Shown: in pieces, positions 9,570 to 40,876 of the stretch
How positions within the stretch are numbered: the first letter of the stretch is position 1
Layout: every line of letters begins with the position of its first letter
Origin: Candidatus Doudnabacteria bacterium
GTDB taxonomy: Bacteria > Patescibacteriota > Doudnabacteria > UBA920
Direction of reading: 5' to 3'
Assembly: GCA_963768175.1 (NCBI GenBank)
Contig: CAVYGQ010000001.1
Coordinates: 840,717-904,716 of the forward strand
Length of the DNA: 64,000 nucleotides
Program-made: the position numbers and the translations under genes
Notes under the pieces: generated by a model
What the model was told of the DNA's origin: nothing
Database searches by the model: none
What the model saw: the letters and a program-made list of their open reading frames with translations, nothing else

Positions 9570-9894
9570 AATGCTTGATCAAGAGTTGAAGAGTTCTGCG
9601 ATTGCCCAAAACCCTCTCTTGGAACCGATGCTCGGGCGGAGTTCGTATACCTGCACGATTTTCGTGATTGATCTCCTTGGGGGGAAATCGGATAACTTTA
9701 GGATTTCAGACGAAGTTCTGGAGCAAATTCGAAAGAGGGTGGAGGGGGCGGAGGATGCGACCTACTACATCATCCACTTCATCCCCAGAGACTTTGAAGT
9801 TAGTAGTCTTGAGGACTTGCCTGAGTCCGAGAAAAAGAAGGTTCGCGAAGCGCTTAACCAAGCACCCTTTCCTGTTTGTATCGTTTGGGTTTAG
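9570..9894 (+). CDS. Hypothetical protein of 108 aa in a GC-rich island
   Basis: An SD (gaaggagga) lies 6 nt upstream of the ATG. GC content is far above the flanking sequence. Confidence 0.5.
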
Positions 9895-9967
9895 GCTAAC
9901 TATCGTGTGAGGTCGCTAGTACGAGCGAAGCTTGGGCGAGCTAGTGGGAGATTAAGAAAGGGGTAAT

Positions 9968-10552
9968 ATGAAAGCGGTACTGTTTTTGGCCATTTGTCTC
10001 ACCATCCCCGCTTCGGCCCAGGACTGGCAGACGCGGGACAGCCTGCACGTGCAGGCGGACGTCAGCAAAAATTGGTTCGTCTCCGGCTGGTCGGTGACCA
10101 ACCTGCGGACCGAAACCCCCAACAACACCAACCTGTTCGCAGGCGCAGGCTACCGCGGCAAAAACTGGTGGCTGGAGGCCATAGTACAGCACCAGTGGAA
10201 CACTAAGGCTAACCAGTGGATGCTGGACTTCCGGTTCAACAAGCAGACCGAACGGTGGCGCTTGTATGCCGAGGTCTCGCCTTTTCTGATCAAGAAGGCC
10301 TTCTACGAGTACGTTATTGTAGAACGGCGGACTTGGAAAGGCTTCTCGTTCGGCGCGGAGACCGAGAACACGCACCAGATTGGGCCGGACATGATCGCAA
10401 TAGGCCCTAGGGTTAGTCGCAAGCTCGGCCGGTTTGCTGGCTTTGATGCATCGGCCGCTATTGCGGTTCGGCTTAGCCCTGTCGGTGGGCATACTGAACC
10501 GCGGTTGTCCCTGACGTTCAACCGCCGGCTTTATTTGAGAGACCGCAAGTAG
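9968..10552 (+). CDS. Secreted protein with a signal peptide, possibly beta-barrel-like; GC-rich
   Basis: N-terminus MKAVLFLAICLTIPASAQD, followed by alternating hydrophobic/polar beta-like segments rich in W, Y and R. An SD (aagggg) is present. GC is about 60% against about 42% for the host. Confidence 0.5.
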   Translation: MKAVLFLAICLTIPASAQDWQTRDSLHVQADVSKNWFVSGWSVTNLRTETPNNTNLFAGAGYRGKNWWLEAIVQHQWNTKANQWMLDFRFNKQTERWRLYAEVSPFLIKKAFYEYVIVERRTWKGFSFGAETENTHQIGPDMIAIGPRVSRKLGRFAGFDASAAIAVRLSPVGGHTEPRLSLTFNRRLYLRDRK

Positions 10553-12795: not shown

Positions 12796-12872
12796 GGGCT
12801 AGTAGCTCAGCTGGTTAGAGCACGTCTCTTATAAGGACGGGGTCGATGGTCCGAATCCATCCTAGCCCACCA
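12796..12872 (+). tRNA. tRNA-Ile (anticodon TAT)
   Basis: Cloverleaf with acceptor GGGCTAG/CTAGCCC, anticodon loop CTTATAA, a GATGG/CCATC T-arm and an encoded CCA. Confidence 0.6.
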
Positions 12873-16056: not shown

Positions 16057-16683
16057 TTATCTTAATGGTTCCAAAACAACCACTTTTGTCCCCTCTTCCG
16101 GCAAATCTTTTTTCTTGAGCGTCAGTTTGTCCATTTCTTCCTTTTTCCCGCCCATTTCTTTGATAAACTTGTCCAAAGACTCCAAATCCAAAATTAACTC
16201 TTTGGTTTTATAATGGCTGGGGATGACAATTTTCGGCTCAACTTCGTTAATGACTTTGCCGGCGGCTGATGCCGAAAGCACCGTGTTGCCGCCGACGGGC
16301 AGAATTAAAATATCTATATCGCCCAGCTCTTCCAGCTCGTTTTCCGTTAAATTAAATTCTTTAATGTGGGTAAGGTTCAGTATACGGATGTCCTCGCTCT
16401 CAATTAAAAAGATCGTAATGTATTTGTTTTCCTGCTTTAAGGGTATCCCGGTGACCGTTACGCCTTTTATGTCGTATTCGCCGGGATCGGTAATGTCAAA
16501 ATGCCCGCCGGAAATGCCGGAGACAGCCGAGTAAAGTTTGCTGTTTTTTTGGGCCAAAATTAAAATATCAGCCGCTCCCCTTGGCGGAGTCAGGCCGGAG
16601 TCTTTATTAAACGGGTCGGTTATAATGGTGGCTAATTTGGTGCTGATTTTAAACGAAGATAAACCAAAATACTGGATTTGCAT
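16057..16683 (-). CDS. Metallo-beta-lactamase-fold hydrolase (UPF0173-like)
   Basis: MQIQYFGLSSFKI start, an HxHxDH-like core and ILILPVGG / PSHY motifs. The start is taken at the internal Met (16683); the upstream extension is Cys-rich and junk-like. Confidence 0.6.
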   Translation of the reverse strand: MQIQYFGLSSFKISTKLATIITDPFNKDSGLTPPRGAADILILAQKNSKLYSAVSGISGGHFDITDPGEYDIKGVTVTGIPLKQENKYITIFLIESEDIRILNLTHIKEFNLTENELEELGDIDILILPVGGNTVLSASAAGKVINEVEPKIVIPSHYKTKELILDLESLDKFIKEMGGKKEEMDKLTLKKKDLPEEGTKVVVLEPLR

Positions 16684-16802
16684 ATAATGAATTGTATCAT
16701 TTTTTAGGCAAAAAGAAAAGGGCAAAATAAGGCAAAAACAGTCTTGACTTTTAAGAAAATTTGCCATATTCTTAACTGTTGGAGAATTGTTGAGGAGGCA
16801 CT

Positions 16803-17084
16803 ATGTACCTTGAAGTAGGGTTATTTGGCTTCGTTATCATAAAGGAGGGACCCTCTTCTTTTGCAGATATCGAAGTCGAGCTCGTGAGGCAAGAGCTGGT
16901 TGGTCGGGGGGTGATTTTTGACCTCACCGGCCAGCAGGCCGACCCGAGCGAGGTCAAGAAGATTGCCATGGCGCTGCGCGTGCCGTGGATTGTCGTCGGG
17001 AGTGGTGCCGACGGCCTGGAAGGCCACACTGCCCAGACCGTTGAGCAGGCGGAGGACCAGCTCATGAGAGGGTATGGGAGCTGA
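16803..17084 (+). CDS. Hypothetical 93-aa protein in a GC-rich islet
   Basis: A GGAGG SD lies 6 nt upstream. GC content is far above the flanks. No domain is recognised. Confidence 0.45.
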   Translation: MYLEVGLFGFVIIKEGPSSFADIEVELVRQELVGRGVIFDLTGQQADPSEVKKIAMALRVPWIVVGSGADGLEGHTAQTVEQAEDQLMRGYGS

Positions 17085-17131
17085 GACTTTCTCGACGGGG
17101 GTTGGTTGTGCTGTGCGCCGGCCAACCCCTT

Positions 17132-17159
17132 GATTTATATCTTAAAACTGCTATAATCT
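17132..17159 (+). promoter_or_regulatory. Sigma70-like promoter (TTGATT, 16 nt spacer, TGcTATAAT extended -10) upstream of rpsA
   Basis: Assigned by sequence pattern only. Confidence 0.4.
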
Positions 17160-17361
17160 TAATACTTATTTGGCGCAAAGCGCTACATTAAATAAAATCA
17201 TTGACCCCCAAATAAGTTTTATTTAAGCGCTTTTTAACAATTAACCAAATGCAATAAGGTTTGTAATTGGACAACGATTAGCCGTTGTTTTATTTTTGCT
17301 CCGACGGCAATTTTGTTTAATGTTACTTAATTTTATCTAATTTTGGTCAATTATAATTATT

Positions 17362-18588
17362 ATGTCAGAAGAAAAACAGCAAAATGTAATTCCGGCGGCC
17401 GCGGCTACGGCCCAAACCATGGGCGACTTGCTCGGTAGTGGGATTGAAATTAAAGTTTTAAAACAGGGTGATATGGTGGAAGGCACCCTGATTTCCGTAG
17501 GCAAGAACGAAGTCTACGTGGACTTGGAAGGCTATGGCGTAGGCGTAGTGCGCGGGCGCGAACTTTACGACGACGAAGCCACCCTTAGTGCGCTCAAACC
17601 CGGCGACAAAATTTTTGTTTCCGTGGTAGAGCCGGAAAATAAGGAAGGCATTTCGGAACTGTCTTTGCGTCAGGCCGGCCAAGAGCGGGTTTGGCAGACG
17701 CTTAAAGAAAAAATGGAAAACAAGGAAGTTTTGCGCACCAAAATTTTGGAAGCCAATAAGGGTGGGCTGATGGTGGAAATCAACAACGTTATGGGTTTTT
17801 TGCCGGTCTCCCAGCTGTCGCTTGAGCATTATCCGCGCGTGGAAGACGGCGATAAAAACCGGATTTTAGGCGTCCTGCAAAGTTACATTGGCCAGTTGTT
17901 TGACGTGCAGATTATTACTGCTGACTCCGCCGAGGAAAAATTAATCGTCAGCGAAAAAGCCGTATTTGAAAAAGAGATGGAAAATCGCCTGGGCCAGCTG
18001 AAAATCGGCATGGTGGTGGAAGGCGCGGTTACCGGCGTGGTGGATTTCGGCGCTTTTGTGAAGTTTGGCGAAATGGAAGGGCTGGTCCATATAAGTGAGC
18101 TTGCCTGGCAGAGAATCGAAAATCCTAAAGATATTGTAAAAGTCGGGCAAAAAGTAACGGCTAAAATTATTTCCATAGATAAGGGCCGCGTCTCTTTGTC
18201 CATTAAGCAGCTGCAGGAAGACCCGTGGCTGGAAGCGGTAAAGAAATATCAAATCGGCCAGACCGTAAAAGGCAAGGTTGCCAAAATTATGCCCTTTGGC
18301 GTGTTTGTGGAGCTGGATAAAGATATCCAAGGGTTAGCCCATGTTATGGAATTGTCCCACGAAGCCGTAAAAAATCCGGAAGATATTTTAAAGCCTGGCG
18401 AAGAAAAGGAATTTAAAATTATTTCCATTGAACCGGCCGAGCATCGTTTGGGACTTTCTTTAAAAGCTTTGCAGGAAGCGCCCAAGAAGATTGCAGAGCC
18501 GCTGGTTGAAACTCCGCCAGTCGCAGATTCAAAACAGCAAGAAGAACCGGAGAAAGAAAACGAAGTCGTCCCGGAAGAAGCTAAGTAA
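17362..18588 (+). CDS. rpsA: 30S ribosomal protein S1 (four S1 domains)
   Basis: Repeated S1 domains (GDMVEGTLISVGKNEVYVDLEGYGVGVV and similar), 408 aa. Confidence 0.88.
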   Translation: MSEEKQQNVIPAAAATAQTMGDLLGSGIEIKVLKQGDMVEGTLISVGKNEVYVDLEGYGVGVVRGRELYDDEATLSALKPGDKIFVSVVEPENKEGISELSLRQAGQERVWQTLKEKMENKEVLRTKILEANKGGLMVEINNVMGFLPVSQLSLEHYPRVEDGDKNRILGVLQSYIGQLFDVQIITADSAEEKLIVSEKAVFEKEMENRLGQLKIGMVVEGAVTGVVDFGAFVKFGEMEGLVHISELAWQRIENPKDIVKVGQKVTAKIISIDKGRVSLSIKQLQEDPWLEAVKKYQIGQTVKGKVAKIMPFGVFVELDKDIQGLAHVMELSHEAVKNPEDILKPGEEKEFKIISIEPAEHRLGLSLKALQEAPKKIAEPLVETPPVADSKQQEEPEKENEVVPEEAK

Positions 18589-27496: not shown

Positions 27497-28132
27497 TCAG
27501 GCCGTTGGGAACAAGTAGGCCAAGATCTCATCGTGGGTAGCTTGGCCAATCTTCCCTGCCGACAGGTATAGTCCTAGCAGTTCTGATATCCGCCAAGCTA
27601 CGTAGCCTTTATAGTTCGCATTGGCGAGCTCGGCCATGCCGCCCTGCTCCCGGTCCACGAGCATGAAGATACCCGCGACATGGAGACGTTCGGCTTCTAA
27701 CACCTTAATGGACGCCAGTTTGGAATCCGCTTTGGTGATCAGGTCATCGAAGAGAGCCACGCGCTGGCCAGGCTGGTAAGCGCCGTCAATGTTGGCGCCA
27801 GAGCCGTGTGTCTTCATCTCTCGTGGAGTGATCATTGGTATCGTGGTAAAACTGGAGATTAGCGTAACCAGCGGAGTGGCGGCGGTCGGTACGTCGGCAA
27901 CCAAGTCACAGGTCACGCCTTCCATCATTTCTGTTAGGAGCCATGCGGTGTCCACCAGCAGCGTTGGAAACGAGCGGAGCAGGCGGAAGTTCAGGTAGAA
28001 TGGTGAGAGCGGGGCGTCGGGGTTTTTTTCGTGTAACTTGAGACGAAACCCTTTGCCTTGAGGCGACCTGGACTTGTCCAGGAAGATGCCGGCGTCAAAC
28101 CACGCCAGCGCGAGAGTTTCTTTGTCGATCAT
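27497..28132 (-). CDS. pyrE: Orotate phosphoribosyltransferase, second copy, GC-rich (xenolog)
   Basis: PRTase motif VALFDDLITKADS and FRLKLHEKNPDAPLSPFYLNFR. The start is taken at the internal MIDKE, because the upstream part overlaps pyrF. Confidence 0.7.
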   Translation of the reverse strand: MIDKETLALAWFDAGIFLDKSRSPQGKGFRLKLHEKNPDAPLSPFYLNFRLLRSFPTLLVDTAWLLTEMMEGVTCDLVADVPTAATPLVTLISSFTTIPMITPREMKTHGSGANIDGAYQPGQRVALFDDLITKADSKLASIKVLEAERLHVAGIFMLVDREQGGMAELANANYKGYVAWRISELLGLYLSAGKIGQATHDEILAYLFPTA

Positions 28133-28136
28133 GGTG

Positions 28137-28937
28137 TTAGTCCTGGCAGGCCTCGATGATGTTGTCGATGATGAGCTCCACCGCCGCCAGAGGATCCTGG
28201 GCGGCAGTAATGTCGCGGCCAACTACAATGCCGTTAGCGCCGCCGCTGATGGAGTTTCCTGGCGTTGCCACTGCCTTCTGCTCTTGCTTTGCGGAGCCAG
28301 GCAGTCGGACGCCAGGGGTGTAAATCAGGAAGTCCGGCCCGCAGGCTTCGCGGATAGCGGCGACTTCCAAAGGTGAGGCGATGACACCGTCGCAGCCGCA
28401 TTCCTGGGCCAGCTTGGCGTATCGAACAACGAGCTTGAGCCGATATGGCTCCTCGACCCCTTCTGGTTTCAGGCCAAGATCCACCAGGTCTTCCTCGCCG
28501 AGGGTGGTCAAGAGAGTTACGGCCAGCAGGAGAGGCTTGCGTTGCAGGTCGAGCTTAGCGGCGGTGGTGTCGATGGCTTCGCGGGCGGCTTTCATAGCCG
28601 CCTTGCCGGCAAAGGCGTGCATGTTGAACATAAGCGGTCGGAGACGGGTCAGGGCTGTTGCCGCGCCCTTGACCGTATTGCCTATATCGGCGAGTTTGCA
28701 GTCCATGAAGTCGGTGCCGACAAGCTCGCCAAACAGGTCCCGCAGGTCCTCGAGCGCCGTAAGCGCATCATCGTAGTCGGCGGTCACCAGAGTGGTAAAC
28801 ACCGAAAGTATGAACTCAAAGCCGATCTTGAACCCGCGCACCTTGCCTTTCAGCATGGTGACGAGCCCTGTGGCTTTGATCACATTGTCTACATCCAAGG
28901 CCACGATAATCCGTGACCCCGCGTCTTTTCGAGTCAT
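28137..28937 (-). CDS. pyrF: Orotidine 5'-phosphate decarboxylase, second copy, GC-rich (xenolog)
   Basis: IIVALDV start and the DxKxxDIxNT motif (MDCKLADIGNTV). Confidence 0.75.
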   Translation of the reverse strand: MTRKDAGSRIIVALDVDNVIKATGLVTMLKGKVRGFKIGFEFILSVFTTLVTADYDDALTALEDLRDLFGELVGTDFMDCKLADIGNTVKGAATALTRLRPLMFNMHAFAGKAAMKAAREAIDTTAAKLDLQRKPLLLAVTLLTTLGEEDLVDLGLKPEGVEEPYRLKLVVRYAKLAQECGCDGVIASPLEVAAIREACGPDFLIYTPGVRLPGSAKQEQKAVATPGNSISGGANGIVVGRDITAAQDPLAAVELIIDNIIEACQD

Positions 28938-36482: not shown

Positions 36483-36631
36483 AAAGTATCGGTAAAACCG
36501 ACGATATTTTAATTACAATATAACCTTATTTTAAAGGATATTTTTAATATTGTCAATAATATATATCAAGATTATTGATATATTTAACAAATTAGTGTAT
36601 AGTGTTTGGTCAACCTTAAGGAGGGTTGGGT

Positions 36632-37277
36632 TATGAGAATATTAGTCGTTGACGACGAGCCCATCAATTTGCTCGCCGCGCAGCAGACTTTGGTTGGGCA
36701 CGAGTTAGTGCTCGTTGACGGTTACGATAAGGCAACGGTACTTTTGGAGCCGGCCGCATACGAAGAAGAGATCACAAAACTCCAGGGAGGGGAAGGCCAC
36801 CGCATTAGCTACCGGCAAGTGCAAGAGATGTTACGCAAGTCTACCAAAGTGTTTGATGCCGTCTTAACTGACCTGCTCATGCCCCCAGGCAAGAGGGGGC
36901 AATCACCGCGGTCTCGCGAAACGTTCCAGAACCTCCCATTTCCTTCGGGGGTGATGCTCGCCCTGCACGCGATCCGGCAAGGCGCAAAGTATGTCGCTGT
37001 GTTCACAAGCGGGATCAACCATCACCACAATCCCGCGGTCTGGATGATGGAGCCGCTCAGGTGGGGCTGGAACGCTACGCCGCAGAAGTTCTTGGTCAAC
37101 GGAGCCATTTTGGGATTCTTTGATGAGTGCGATGGCGGTCGCGTCCCTGTAGATGGCACTGTGTGTCAGGAATGCAATGGCAAAGGTTGCCTAACATATT
37201 GTCATGAAACTGGCAAGCTTTTTGCCAAGAACTGGGGAAGGGTTCTTGAGGAGCTCATCAAGCACCACAACAGCTAG
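36632..37277 (+). CDS. Orphan REC (receiver)-domain protein with a Cys-rich C-terminus; GC-rich
   Basis: MRILVVDDEP..DAVLTDLLMP..VAVFTS gives REC beta1, beta3 and beta4 signatures, and CQECNGKGCLTYCH follows at the C-terminus. A strong SD (aaggaggg) is present. GC is about 58%. Confidence 0.65.
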
Positions 37278-37396: not shown

Positions 37397-39331
37397 TTAT
37401 AACGTCTTCTGTTTTATCTTTTCCTCAAAACTCTCCAAGACATCCCCGACTAAAATTTTAATCGGGGTTTTTATTTTCATGCCGAATTCTTCGCCGGAGT
37501 TTACCGACTTAGATATAACTTTGCTTTGCTGGAGCTCCTCAATTTCTCCGCGGCCTAGCTCGGTATCGGCTCGCCAAACGTTAATGTGGCTGGTCTTTTT
37601 TAACAAGCCTTCTTCCACGCGGCCGCCAACAATCATTTGGCCTTTTTCCGTCATAAAAATTGCTAGAACTTTAGCCTTGCCTAAAACGTGTTTTTCCAGC
37701 TCAGGCGTAAACATCTTTATAACCGCCGAAGTAATATCTTCCAAAAGTTCGTAAATGACGTCGTAGGTATCTATAATAACCTTTTTTTGCTTGGCTAAAT
37801 TAATGGCTTTGGGGTTTACTTTGGTGCGAAAGCCGACAATTACGGCTTTGGAGCTGCCGGCGAGCAAAACATCGGACTCGTTAATTTCCCCCACGCCTTC
37901 GCTTAAGATGTTAATTTTAACCTCATCATTTTTTAATTTGGCCACGCTCTGTTTAATGGCTTCCAGCGAGCCGGCTACGTCGGTTTTTAAAATCAAATTT
38001 AAAGTTTTATTTTCCAAATTCCCCACAATGGCTTGTTTGCTGGAAAGTTTGTGGCTGTGGTTTTTGCGCTGGACCAAAACGGCAATAGCCTTGGCTTCGT
38101 CCAAAGTCGCGGTGGTCTGCAAAATGTCGCCGGCCTGCGGAACTTCCGAAAGCCCGGAAATTTGCGCGGCCGTGGAAGGCGTGGCTTCTTTAAGCTTGCG
38201 GCCGGTCTCGTCTTCCAGGCTCCTGACCCTGCCAAACGCGGCGCCCGCGGCAAAAATATCGCCAACCCTTAGCGTGCCGTTTTGCACCATAACCGTGGCC
38301 GTGGCCCCTTTGCCCTGGGTGATTTTGCTTTCTATAATTGTGCCCACCATTTTGCCGTGCGGGTTGGCGCGCAAATTTTCCATTTCCGCCGTCAGTAAAA
38401 TCATTTCTAAAAGCTGGTCTATGCCCTTGTTTTGTTTGGCGGAAATTTCGCAGGCAATGACCTTGCCTCCCCATTCTTCGGTAAGCACCCCTTGACCGGC
38501 CAGCTCTTGCTTAACCCTGGTAACGTTGGCTTCGGGCTTATCTATTTTGTTTATGGCCACAATCATGGGCGTGTTGGTGAATTTGGCGCGATTGATGACT
38601 TCCAAAGTCTGCGGCCTGACGCCGTCGTCCGCTGCCACAACCAACACGATAATGTCCGTTACGTTGGCACCGCGCGAACGCATCTCAGAAAAAGCTTCGT
38701 GGCCAGGAGTGTCCAAAAAAGTTATCCATTTGTCGTTTTTCTTTACTTTGTAGGCGCCAATATGCTGGGTAATGCCGCCGCTTTCGCCTTCGGCCACTTT
38801 GGTTTTACGGATGGTATCCAAGAGTGTGGTTTTGCCGTGGTCAACGTGTCCCATAATGGCAACTATGGGCGGGCGCGGTTTTAGGTTTTCTTCTTTTTCA
38901 GCTTTTAAGACTTCGTTTAAAAACCCTAAGCCGTATTCCGCTACGCTCTGGTCAGCTTCTGTCTCTACCTCAAAACCTAAATCCTGGGCCACAATGCTGG
39001 CGGTATCAAAATCTATTTCCTCGTTAATGGAAGCCATGACCCCGTTGTTTATCAGCACGGTAATAACTTTGGTTACCGGCAATTTTAACAGTAAGGCAAA
39101 ATCGCGGACTTTAATGAACGAAGGCAATTTAACTTTTATTGGCGTAATAGGAAGGCTGGTCGAAGATCCTGAGCGATTAGTCGAGGGACCAAAAGCTTCC
39201 AGCAGTTTTCGCGCTACGTAATTGTCTACCTTGTTGGCTTTGGGCGAAATGAAATAGCCTTTCTCCTTGGCCTTAAGGCGAACGTCTTGTATGGACATAT
39301 TCAGTTGTGAGGAGAGAGATGAGAGGTTCAT
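37397..39331 (-). CDS. infB: Translation initiation factor IF-2
   Basis: G-domain [15 protein letters not shown] and DTPGHEAF motifs, 644 aa. Confidence 0.93.
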
Positions 39332-40174: not shown

Positions 40175-40432
40175 ATTAAATACAAATAAATTGATGCCTG
40201 AGCTTGTCGAAGGCTCAATTTATTTGTCCCTTCGACTTTGCTCAGGGGACAAATAAATTTAAATTTGACGTTTTTTACGTCAACAGTATATCAAATCTAA
40301 TAAAAATAAGCAAATAAAGGCAAAATATATAATAAATTATGCCACAATTATTGACGTTATGTCAATTTTGATGTATTGTTATCGGTCAAAACAAAAACAC
40401 CTGACGAGGTTAACAACGCAAAGGAGGTAGTT

Positions 40433-40876
40433 ATGAATATTTTGGTTGTAGAAGACGATCCGAAGCATATGAAGGAGGCTGTTGAGGTCATTCAAGCCGC
40501 CGGACACGAAGTGATACAGGCAACTGATATGTATAGAGCCAGGGAGTATCTCTACGATGACCGCCCCGACGGAGTAATTACTGACCTTTTTATTCCGGAT
40601 GGTGCGGGAGGAGTAAATGAAGATGCGGATCAGCCGCGAGGCCTAGGAATTGTCTTAATGGCGCAGCAGGAAGGCATTCCTTGCATCATCTGCACCGCAG
40701 GATATCACCACGGATCCAAGTACAACTGGATCTGCGGACTCGGGCGGAGGTTGCACTGGCCACCGATGGTAGATCAGCTTCAGGATCGGCACAACTACGA
40801 GGTGGAAAGCCAGTCGAAAGACTGGCAAGAAGCGCTCGACACCCTGGTCAAGATCATAGTGGCCAAGGGATATTAA
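40433..40876 (+). CDS. Orphan REC-domain protein, paralog of 36632-37277; GC-rich
   Basis: MNILVVEDDP..DGVITDLFIP..CIICTAGYHHG. A strong SD (aaaggaggt) is present. It is divergent from TrmB paralog 3. Confidence 0.65.
   Translation: MNILVVEDDPKHMKEAVEVIQAAGHEVIQATDMYRAREYLYDDRPDGVITDLFIPDGAGGVNEDADQPRGLGIVLMAQQEGIPCIICTAGYHHGSKYNWICGLGRRLHWPPMVDQLQDRHNYEVESQSKDWQEALDTLVKIIVAKGY

Follow-up and report, generated by a model that had tools for sequence, protein, structure and literature searches.

A GC-rich islet between an MBL-fold hydrolase gene and rpsA, probably a lineage-specific orphan gene at a gene-turnover hotspot

A small GC-rich islet in the 64-kb stretch of DNA analysed here (the window) is probably a lineage-specific accessory orphan gene, which would encode a soluble acidic protein of 93 residues and would lie at a gene-turnover hotspot. 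The gene, ORF93, covers 282 nt of the + strand (16803..17084). In the proposed arrangement ORF93 would be a self-contained cassette, with a promoter (16744-16772) and the Shine-Dalgarno (SD) sequence GAGGAGG before the ORF and a hairpin (17097-17129) acting as terminator, set in a hypervariable slot between the conserved divergent promoters of the MBL gene and rpsA. Its expression would depend on a promoter and SD platform older than the gene itself. Recombination would have brought in or replaced the gene body, above all codons 32-93 (GC3 ~0.8), from an unsampled, GC-richer source.

The islet and its open reading frame

GC content was 0.55-0.64 over 16800-17099 in 200-nt windows, 0.33-0.39 in the upstream flank and 0.31-0.35 downstream by 17100-17399. 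An earlier reading of this DNA, made from the sequence alone (the sequence-only reading), had described a spike confined to one small ORF. The ORF and its quoted translation were recovered exactly and the spike is sharp, but it also takes in a GC-rich hairpin at 17097-17129, and no other element. It is not unique, since four other regions of the window have comparable GC, namely the 5' part of gyrA (0.59), pyrE/pyrF (0.57-0.62), 9901-10500 and 38101-38400.

The left boundary of the islet is formed by a gene on the minus strand (16060..16683) for the MBL-fold hydrolase that had been named as a neighbour, and Pfam agrees (Lactamase_B_3, E=1.5e-24). This gene is divergent from ORF93, and 119 nt separate their start codons. 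The right boundary is the promoter and structured leader of rpsA (17130..17300, + strand), which is conserved in 13 relatives. The promoter consists of TTGATT, a 16-nt spacer and TGCTATAAT, scores 10/12 in a consensus scan and has an extended -10. The rpsA gene itself follows at 17362-18588 (+ strand). Around the islet lie gyrA, a small ORF that looks membrane-like (hydrophobic, by eye), the MBL gene, rpsA and a DUF378 gene.

Upstream of ORF93 a putative sigma-70-like promoter was found at 16744..16772 (+ strand; -35 TTGACT, 17-nt spacer, -10 TATTCT), scoring 9/12 in the consensus scan. A Shine-Dalgarno-like GAGGAGG was read from the sequence at 16792..16798 (+ strand). The SD had been called strong and perfect. 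It is indeed unusual for this genome: upstream regions are A/T-rich, and within the 25 nt before the start an SD-like match of 5 nt or more was seen in only about 5/37 core genes. Its spacer to the ATG is only 4 nt. The organism seems to start translation mostly without an SD, so arguments from the SD are weak here, and a 4-nt spacer in a genome that rarely uses SDs was counted against the coding-gene reading. Downstream, the hairpin (17097..17129, + strand) starts 12 nt after the ORF93 stop and ends directly against the -35 element of the rpsA promoter. The MFE structure has a strong stem of ~12 bp followed by UUGAUUUAU, a moderately U-rich tail. A simple terminator scan did not flag it, and it was taken as a candidate cassette terminator.

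Neither direct or inverted repeats bracketing 16780-17130 nor mobile-element scars were found, and no second copy of the islet was present within the 64-kb window. No integrase, tRNA, repeats or target-site duplication marked the slot. A mobile element or cassette (IS, MITE, integron cassette) was rejected for lack of terminal repeats, a target-site duplication and a second copy.

The openness of ORF93 alone is no better than chance, since about 35% of Markov-1 random sequences of islet composition had, per strand, an open frame of 90 codons or more. On the opposite strand a 117-aa ORF is open as well. Codon-position periodicity gave a different result. The nucleotide by codon-position table of ORF93 yielded chi2 = 34.0, which exceeds all 3,000 random open frames used as a null (mean 6.1, 99th percentile 16.6, maximum 27.4) and lies within the range of 93-codon windows from real genes in the stretch (median 22.6, 5-95% range 7.5-41.1). 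The periodic signal was seen in all three thirds of the ORF. GC at the three codon positions was 0.67/0.38/0.70, the same order as in real genes (0.49/0.35/0.50), and G at 47% of first positions is within the real-gene range. A frame-specific codon model trained on core genes selected the ORF93 frame. The antisense ORF was rejected as a true gene, its values (GC1/2/3 0.42/0.64/0.68, G at 16% of first positions) being a mirror image and non-gene-like, and there was no Pfam match in any other frame or on the other strand. Because of its significant periodicity ORF93 is read as protein-coding: 16803-17084 is probably a real gene for a protein, or was so in the very recent past. We infer that it is both transcribed and translated.

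The GC3 of ORF93 is 0.70, compared with 0.50 +/- 0.07 in core genes. Its composition is chimeric. Codons 1-31 are host-like (GC 0.45), while codons 32-93 have a GC of 0.65-0.66 and a GC3 of 0.74-0.84. In synonymous codon usage ORF93 groups with the GC3-rich ORFs pyrE, pyrF, 9968 and 36606 and not with core genes (log-odds +0.11 per codon vs -0.15 +/- 0.03 for core genes). This grouping restates GC3 and is no proof of a common donor; it is compatible with a foreign origin, which the GC3 of 0.70-0.84 makes plausible. The sequence-only reading had seen one signature shared by ORF93 and ORFs at 9570, 36632 and 40433, and had offered codon usage as a test for a common donor. The part that stands is that ORF93 groups with GC3-rich ORFs. 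ORFs 36632 and 40433 are of only modest GC, and the comparison does not point to a common donor, with ORF 40376 (the 40433 of that reading) barely distinguishable from core genes. The claim that ORF93 is foreign fits its atypical GC3, its periodicity and its absence from syntenic relatives. No donor was found in any resource searched, and no homolog either, so "foreign" stays a reading of composition, on which horizontal acquisition may be presumed.

Several of the ORFs used in this comparison were also looked at individually. The pyrE-like gene and pyrF form a GC-rich pair on the minus strand (27497-28937; GC 0.57-0.62, pyrF GC3 0.72) that is unlike core genes in composition and was possibly acquired. 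The ORF at 9968-10552 (+ strand, 194 aa) has the highest GC3 of the window (0.75) and no Pfam or NCBIfam match. Its N-terminus (MKAVLFLAICLTIPASAQD) is signal-peptide-like by eye, and a 183-aa antisense ORF overlaps it. The ORF at 40376-40876 (+ strand) has a receiver domain (Pfam Response_reg), and the one at 36606-37277 (+ strand), the 36632 of the sequence-only reading, has a receiver-like N-terminus by eye (MRILVVDDEP...) and no Pfam match; both have a modest GC elevation, with GC3 of 0.57-0.65. Elsewhere in the window ARAGORN identified a tRNA-Ile with anticodon UAU (12796-12872, + strand), an uncommon bacterial way of reading AUA.

The predicted protein

The 93-aa protein (predicted 10.05 kDa, pI 4.45) contains 14 acidic and 7 basic residues and lacks both Cys and TM-like segments. 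Its predicted tryptic peptides include GVIFDLTGQQADPSEVK, VPWIVVGSGADGLEGHTAQTVEQAEDQLMR and QELVGR.

A homolog search and structure prediction had been suggested for it, and neither placed it in a family. Among 5.8 billion protein clusters the query itself was the only match, recorded on one 949-kb contig and on a 2-kb Logan contig of identical sequence. A full HMMER pass over 1.84 billion representatives gave no true homolog and one extra match, P0002, which was rejected because this 752-aa tandem-repeat protein owes its score to five repeats matching one 38-residue stretch, a chance result. Pfam gave 0 families at E<=10, and NCBIfam and PADLOC each gave 0 matches. The best PHROGs match had E=0.31, with no family membership, and the best match among PDB sequences had E=0.32. 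The latter was to a Glu/Leu/Phe/Val dehydrogenase NAD-binding domain, which was rejected as it came from one chain (5xvi_A, 14.7 bits), with no other GDH and no Pfam support. Homologs were absent from back-translated scans of viral and metagenome contigs, and relatives were absent from phage and plasmid records searched with tblastn.

The AF2 single-sequence model has the order beta-beta-alpha-alpha-beta-alpha-beta-alpha and is of low confidence (pLDDT 57). Foldseek against the PDB returned nothing below E=0.1 (best E=0.12, TM below 0.5). No fold was assigned, since only generic alpha/beta pieces were matched and none significantly. The motif ...DPxE...VPxIxVxS...LG bears some resemblance to small RNA-binding proteins of the L7Ae/YlxQ type. 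ORF93 is of similar size and similar predicted alpha/beta order, and its segment ADPSEVKKIAMALRVPWIVVGSGADGL is superficially alike. However, its motif spacing is ~4 residues shorter, and there was no match in Pfam (E<=10), NCBIfam or PDB sequences. Membership was dismissed for want of profile support. Since the protein is small, acidic, soluble and without catalytic signatures, one tentative guess, itself unlikely to be right, is that it is a non-enzymatic accessory protein of the binding or inhibitor type, e.g. in phage or host conflict.

The slot between the MBL gene and rpsA in relatives

A search with S1 found matches in Patescibacteria/Saccharibacteria-like MAGs. The order gyrA, small ORF, MBL, slot, rpsA, DUF378 is kept in relatives whose S1 is 70-93% identical, counted where loci reach the genes (L002-L004, L006, L082-L088, L162 and L163). 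Neither ORF93 nor islet-like DNA was found in any of these syntenic relatives. Spurious coding had been expected to show as a lack of homologs together with disruption of the ORF in related genomes; homologs are indeed lacking, and in the relatives the ORF is missing altogether, not broken.

The window's slot is 678 bp long. Those of the relatives range from 295 to 1,673 bp and are either empty or filled with unrelated ORFs. The shortest slots (L084 and L083, 295-306 bp) contain only the MBL upstream region and the rpsA promoter and leader, and no ORF was called in those of L004 and L087 (361-422 bp). Longer slots hold a 101-aa ORF with a weak coding signal (L085, 553 bp), a 74-aa ORF (L002, 785 bp), overlapping ORFs of 90 and 98 aa (L003, about 810 bp), or a 163-aa ORF with a consensus promoter and SD (L006, 951 bp). 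Among relatives with an S1 identity of 93%, L162/L163 have an 864-bp slot with a 99-aa + strand ORF (GC 0.52-0.56), and L082 has a 1,673-bp slot with two minus-strand ORFs (GC 0.55-0.59), one of them weakly like nucleoside 2-deoxyribosyltransferase. Several of the relatives' slot ORFs show coding periodicity. The 99-aa ORF of L162/L163, the one relative slot ORF that was searched, is an orphan too. In L002, L085 and L162, which have + strand slot ORFs, different hairpins with T-runs occupy the position of the candidate terminator.

Slot ORFs of the relatives have no significant similarity to ORF93, and among themselves there were two marginal local matches only. Positional orthology with the 74-aa ORF of L002, which has a SEVKK..A....VP stretch in common with ORF93, was rejected: Smith-Waterman p was 0.03-0.06 before correction, and other pairs were non-significant.

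The DNA upstream of ORF93 behaved differently from the ORF. Window positions 16684-16802, comprising the MBL-proximal motif, -35, -10 and SD, align with L162 2197-2302 (local z=8.3). The -35 and -10 are retained, and in L162 the conserved SD reads AAGGAGG. Past this SD, homology between the two was rejected as non-significant (z 1.2 and 1.5). Since only the promoter and SD module is common to the window and its nearest relatives, the body of ORF93 was most likely imported or replaced. L163 has an identical 99-aa ORF and the same gene layout; the module alignment covered L162, not the L163 upstream DNA.

In L162 the region 2245-2420 contains the shared module, an ATG-TAA start-stop, a 5-codon mini-ORF, a leader of ~110 nt, a second SD and then the 99-aa ORF, an arrangement that may be of the leader-peptide type. 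The window counterpart of its ATG-TAA is ATG-TAC, which opens ORF93. ORF93 also has an internal AAGGAGG (16843..16849, + strand), which may, as a lead only, be a vestige of a second SD like the one that precedes the 99-aa ORF in L162. The local match at this point (TTGGC-TTCGTTATCATAAAGGAG / TTGGCGTTCCTT---AGAAAGGAG) is non-significant at z=1.2.

The MBL gene is present in all relatives, at 34-58% identity, whatever occupies the slot, and a functional link between it and ORF93 is unsupported. Its protein is only 47-58% identical where S1 is 91-93%, the N-terminal part of gyrA 91-98% and arginine/ornithine decarboxylase ~82% identical. Judged by these identities, the MBL gene beside the variable slot is evolving much faster than its neighbours. 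A motif by the MBL start, TGTATCATTTTTTAGGCAAAAAGAAAAGGG (window 16684-16730), is conserved in nearly all relatives, although its distance from the MBL ATG varies. Read on the minus strand, the motif gives an extended -10 (TGATACAAT), and its position only ~7 nt ahead of the MBL ATG suggests a leaderless MBL mRNA.

On the other side of the slot, the rpsA leader (17164-17296) has two interleaved helices, P1 (17164-17173 / 17208-17217) and P2 (17177-17184 / 17226-17233), which together form a pseudoknot. Both are maintained by compensatory changes among 13 relatives, for example ACTTATTTGG/CCAAATAAGT to ACTTGTCTGG/CCAGGCAGGT, and AAAGCGCT/AGCGCTTT to AACGCCGCT/AGCGGCGTT, AACGCTCTT/AAGAGCGTT and GCACGTTT/AAACGTGC. 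An invariant TTAAnnATTAA at 17234 lies 3' of the helices and is followed by a terminator-like hairpin (17269-17290) with a T-run to 17296. No Rfam match to the leader was found (16650-17360, E<=10). The leader is a candidate new regulatory element of ribosomal protein S1 in this Patescibacteria clade, acting by autoregulation or as an attenuator. Four to five phased 10-nt repeats (AATTTTnnnn; 17309-17359, + strand) were also noticed immediately 5' of the rpsA start codon. The rpsA gene has no SD, and similar TTGGTCAATT repeats occur in L088.

Alternative readings and significance

The islet might instead be a dead foreign coding fragment that inherited its periodicity, is open only through its GC-richness and has no functional product. 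Such a remnant would explain why it occurs in a single lineage without homologs, why GC changes from 0.45 in codons 1-31 to 0.65-0.66 in codons 32-93, and why the openness is non-significant and the AF2 confidence poor. We nevertheless consider it unlikely. The periodic frame is exactly the one whose ATG stands behind the conserved promoter/SD module, it spans the whole islet with its stop 12 nt before the hairpin, and relatives of a larger parent gene would be expected among 15 billion proteins, where none were found.

Another alternative is a structured non-coding RNA of ~340 nt, running from the 16744 promoter to the 17097 hairpin, with an ORF that is incidental to GC-richness. GC-rich islets within AT-rich intergenic DNA are a classic signature in bacterial ncRNA discovery, and the large structured RNAs of the raiA, OLE and ROOL classes were found as such islets in AT-rich genomes. 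Like them, the islet is GC-rich in an AT-rich spacer, folds well below shuffles and has a putative promoter and a candidate terminator. The + strand at 16770-17135 folds to -162.8 kcal/mol (z=-4.1), and the ORF part alone gave z=-3.55 or -4.45 in two runs, with a mean of -0.86 (sd 1.35) for other coding windows. This strongly structured RNA (z -3.6 to -4.5), compatible also with a non-coding RNA, was counted against the coding-gene reading, and the chance of an open frame (~35% of such sequences) and a protein without homolog would suit an ncRNA as well. However, the first 282 nt of pyrF, which are undoubtedly coding, fold at z=-5.2, so a low z is undiagnostic here. Unlike raiA, OLE and ROOL, the islet has codon periodicity, and periodicity in the ORF93 frame above every null frame is unexpected for an ncRNA. 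Searches of 160 related loci, the remainder of the window, phage DNA and viral and metagenome contigs gave no related sequence, hence no covariation. Rfam reported only tRNAs over the window at gathering thresholds and only chance matches over 16650-17360 at E<=10 (best ctRNA_p42d, 20.3 vs 50 bits gathering), and known ncRNAs (RNase P, tmRNA, 6S, SRP, others) were rejected since neither Rfam nor ARAGORN placed any at the islet. We therefore regard an ncRNA as improbable.

An assembly chimera or contaminant, which a sharp compositional break in one genome only could indicate, is extremely unlikely, as a 2,029-bp stretch (islet plus rpsA) is 100% identical in a separate Logan assembly (run ERR10755942), the 5' flank and SD are continuous with L162-homologous sequence, and the conserved rpsA promoter continues directly from the hairpin's 3' foot.

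The lineage-specific orphan gene is thus the reading that we prefer, although the missing homologs, the poor AF2 model and the lack of scars from an insertion also count against it. Orphan small genes restricted to one taxon and lying between core genes, at hotspots of integration or turnover, are a known concept, and orphan small genes are abundant in candidate-phyla-radiation genomes. ORF93 has no homolog outside its lineage and sits in a variable slot with syntenic core flanks, and it has atypical composition and a putative promoter and candidate terminator of its own. It differs from the usual hotspot in that the slot has no integrase, tRNA, repeats or target-site duplication, and in that one promoter/SD module is common to different fillings. 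This sharing makes replacement downstream of a fixed platform look likelier than mobile insertion. A bolder version, which we think has only a small chance of being correct, is that the slot is a dedicated platform, with a fixed promoter/SD and a terminator abutting the rpsA promoter, for swapping unrelated and often GC-richer small orphans. ORF93 would then be one allele, e.g. an episymbiont phage or host conflict factor, and its mRNA might have a second function at the RNA level.

By itself ORF93 is of small importance, being ordinary for this type of genome. It is a clean case in which codon periodicity tells a real gene apart from an ncRNA or a GC-rich ORF that arose by chance. The rpsA pseudoknot leader is probably a better lead than ORF93. 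The fixed slot beside rpsA, in which small orphans turn over, would be usable for the study of gene birth and exchange in reduced episymbiont genomes.
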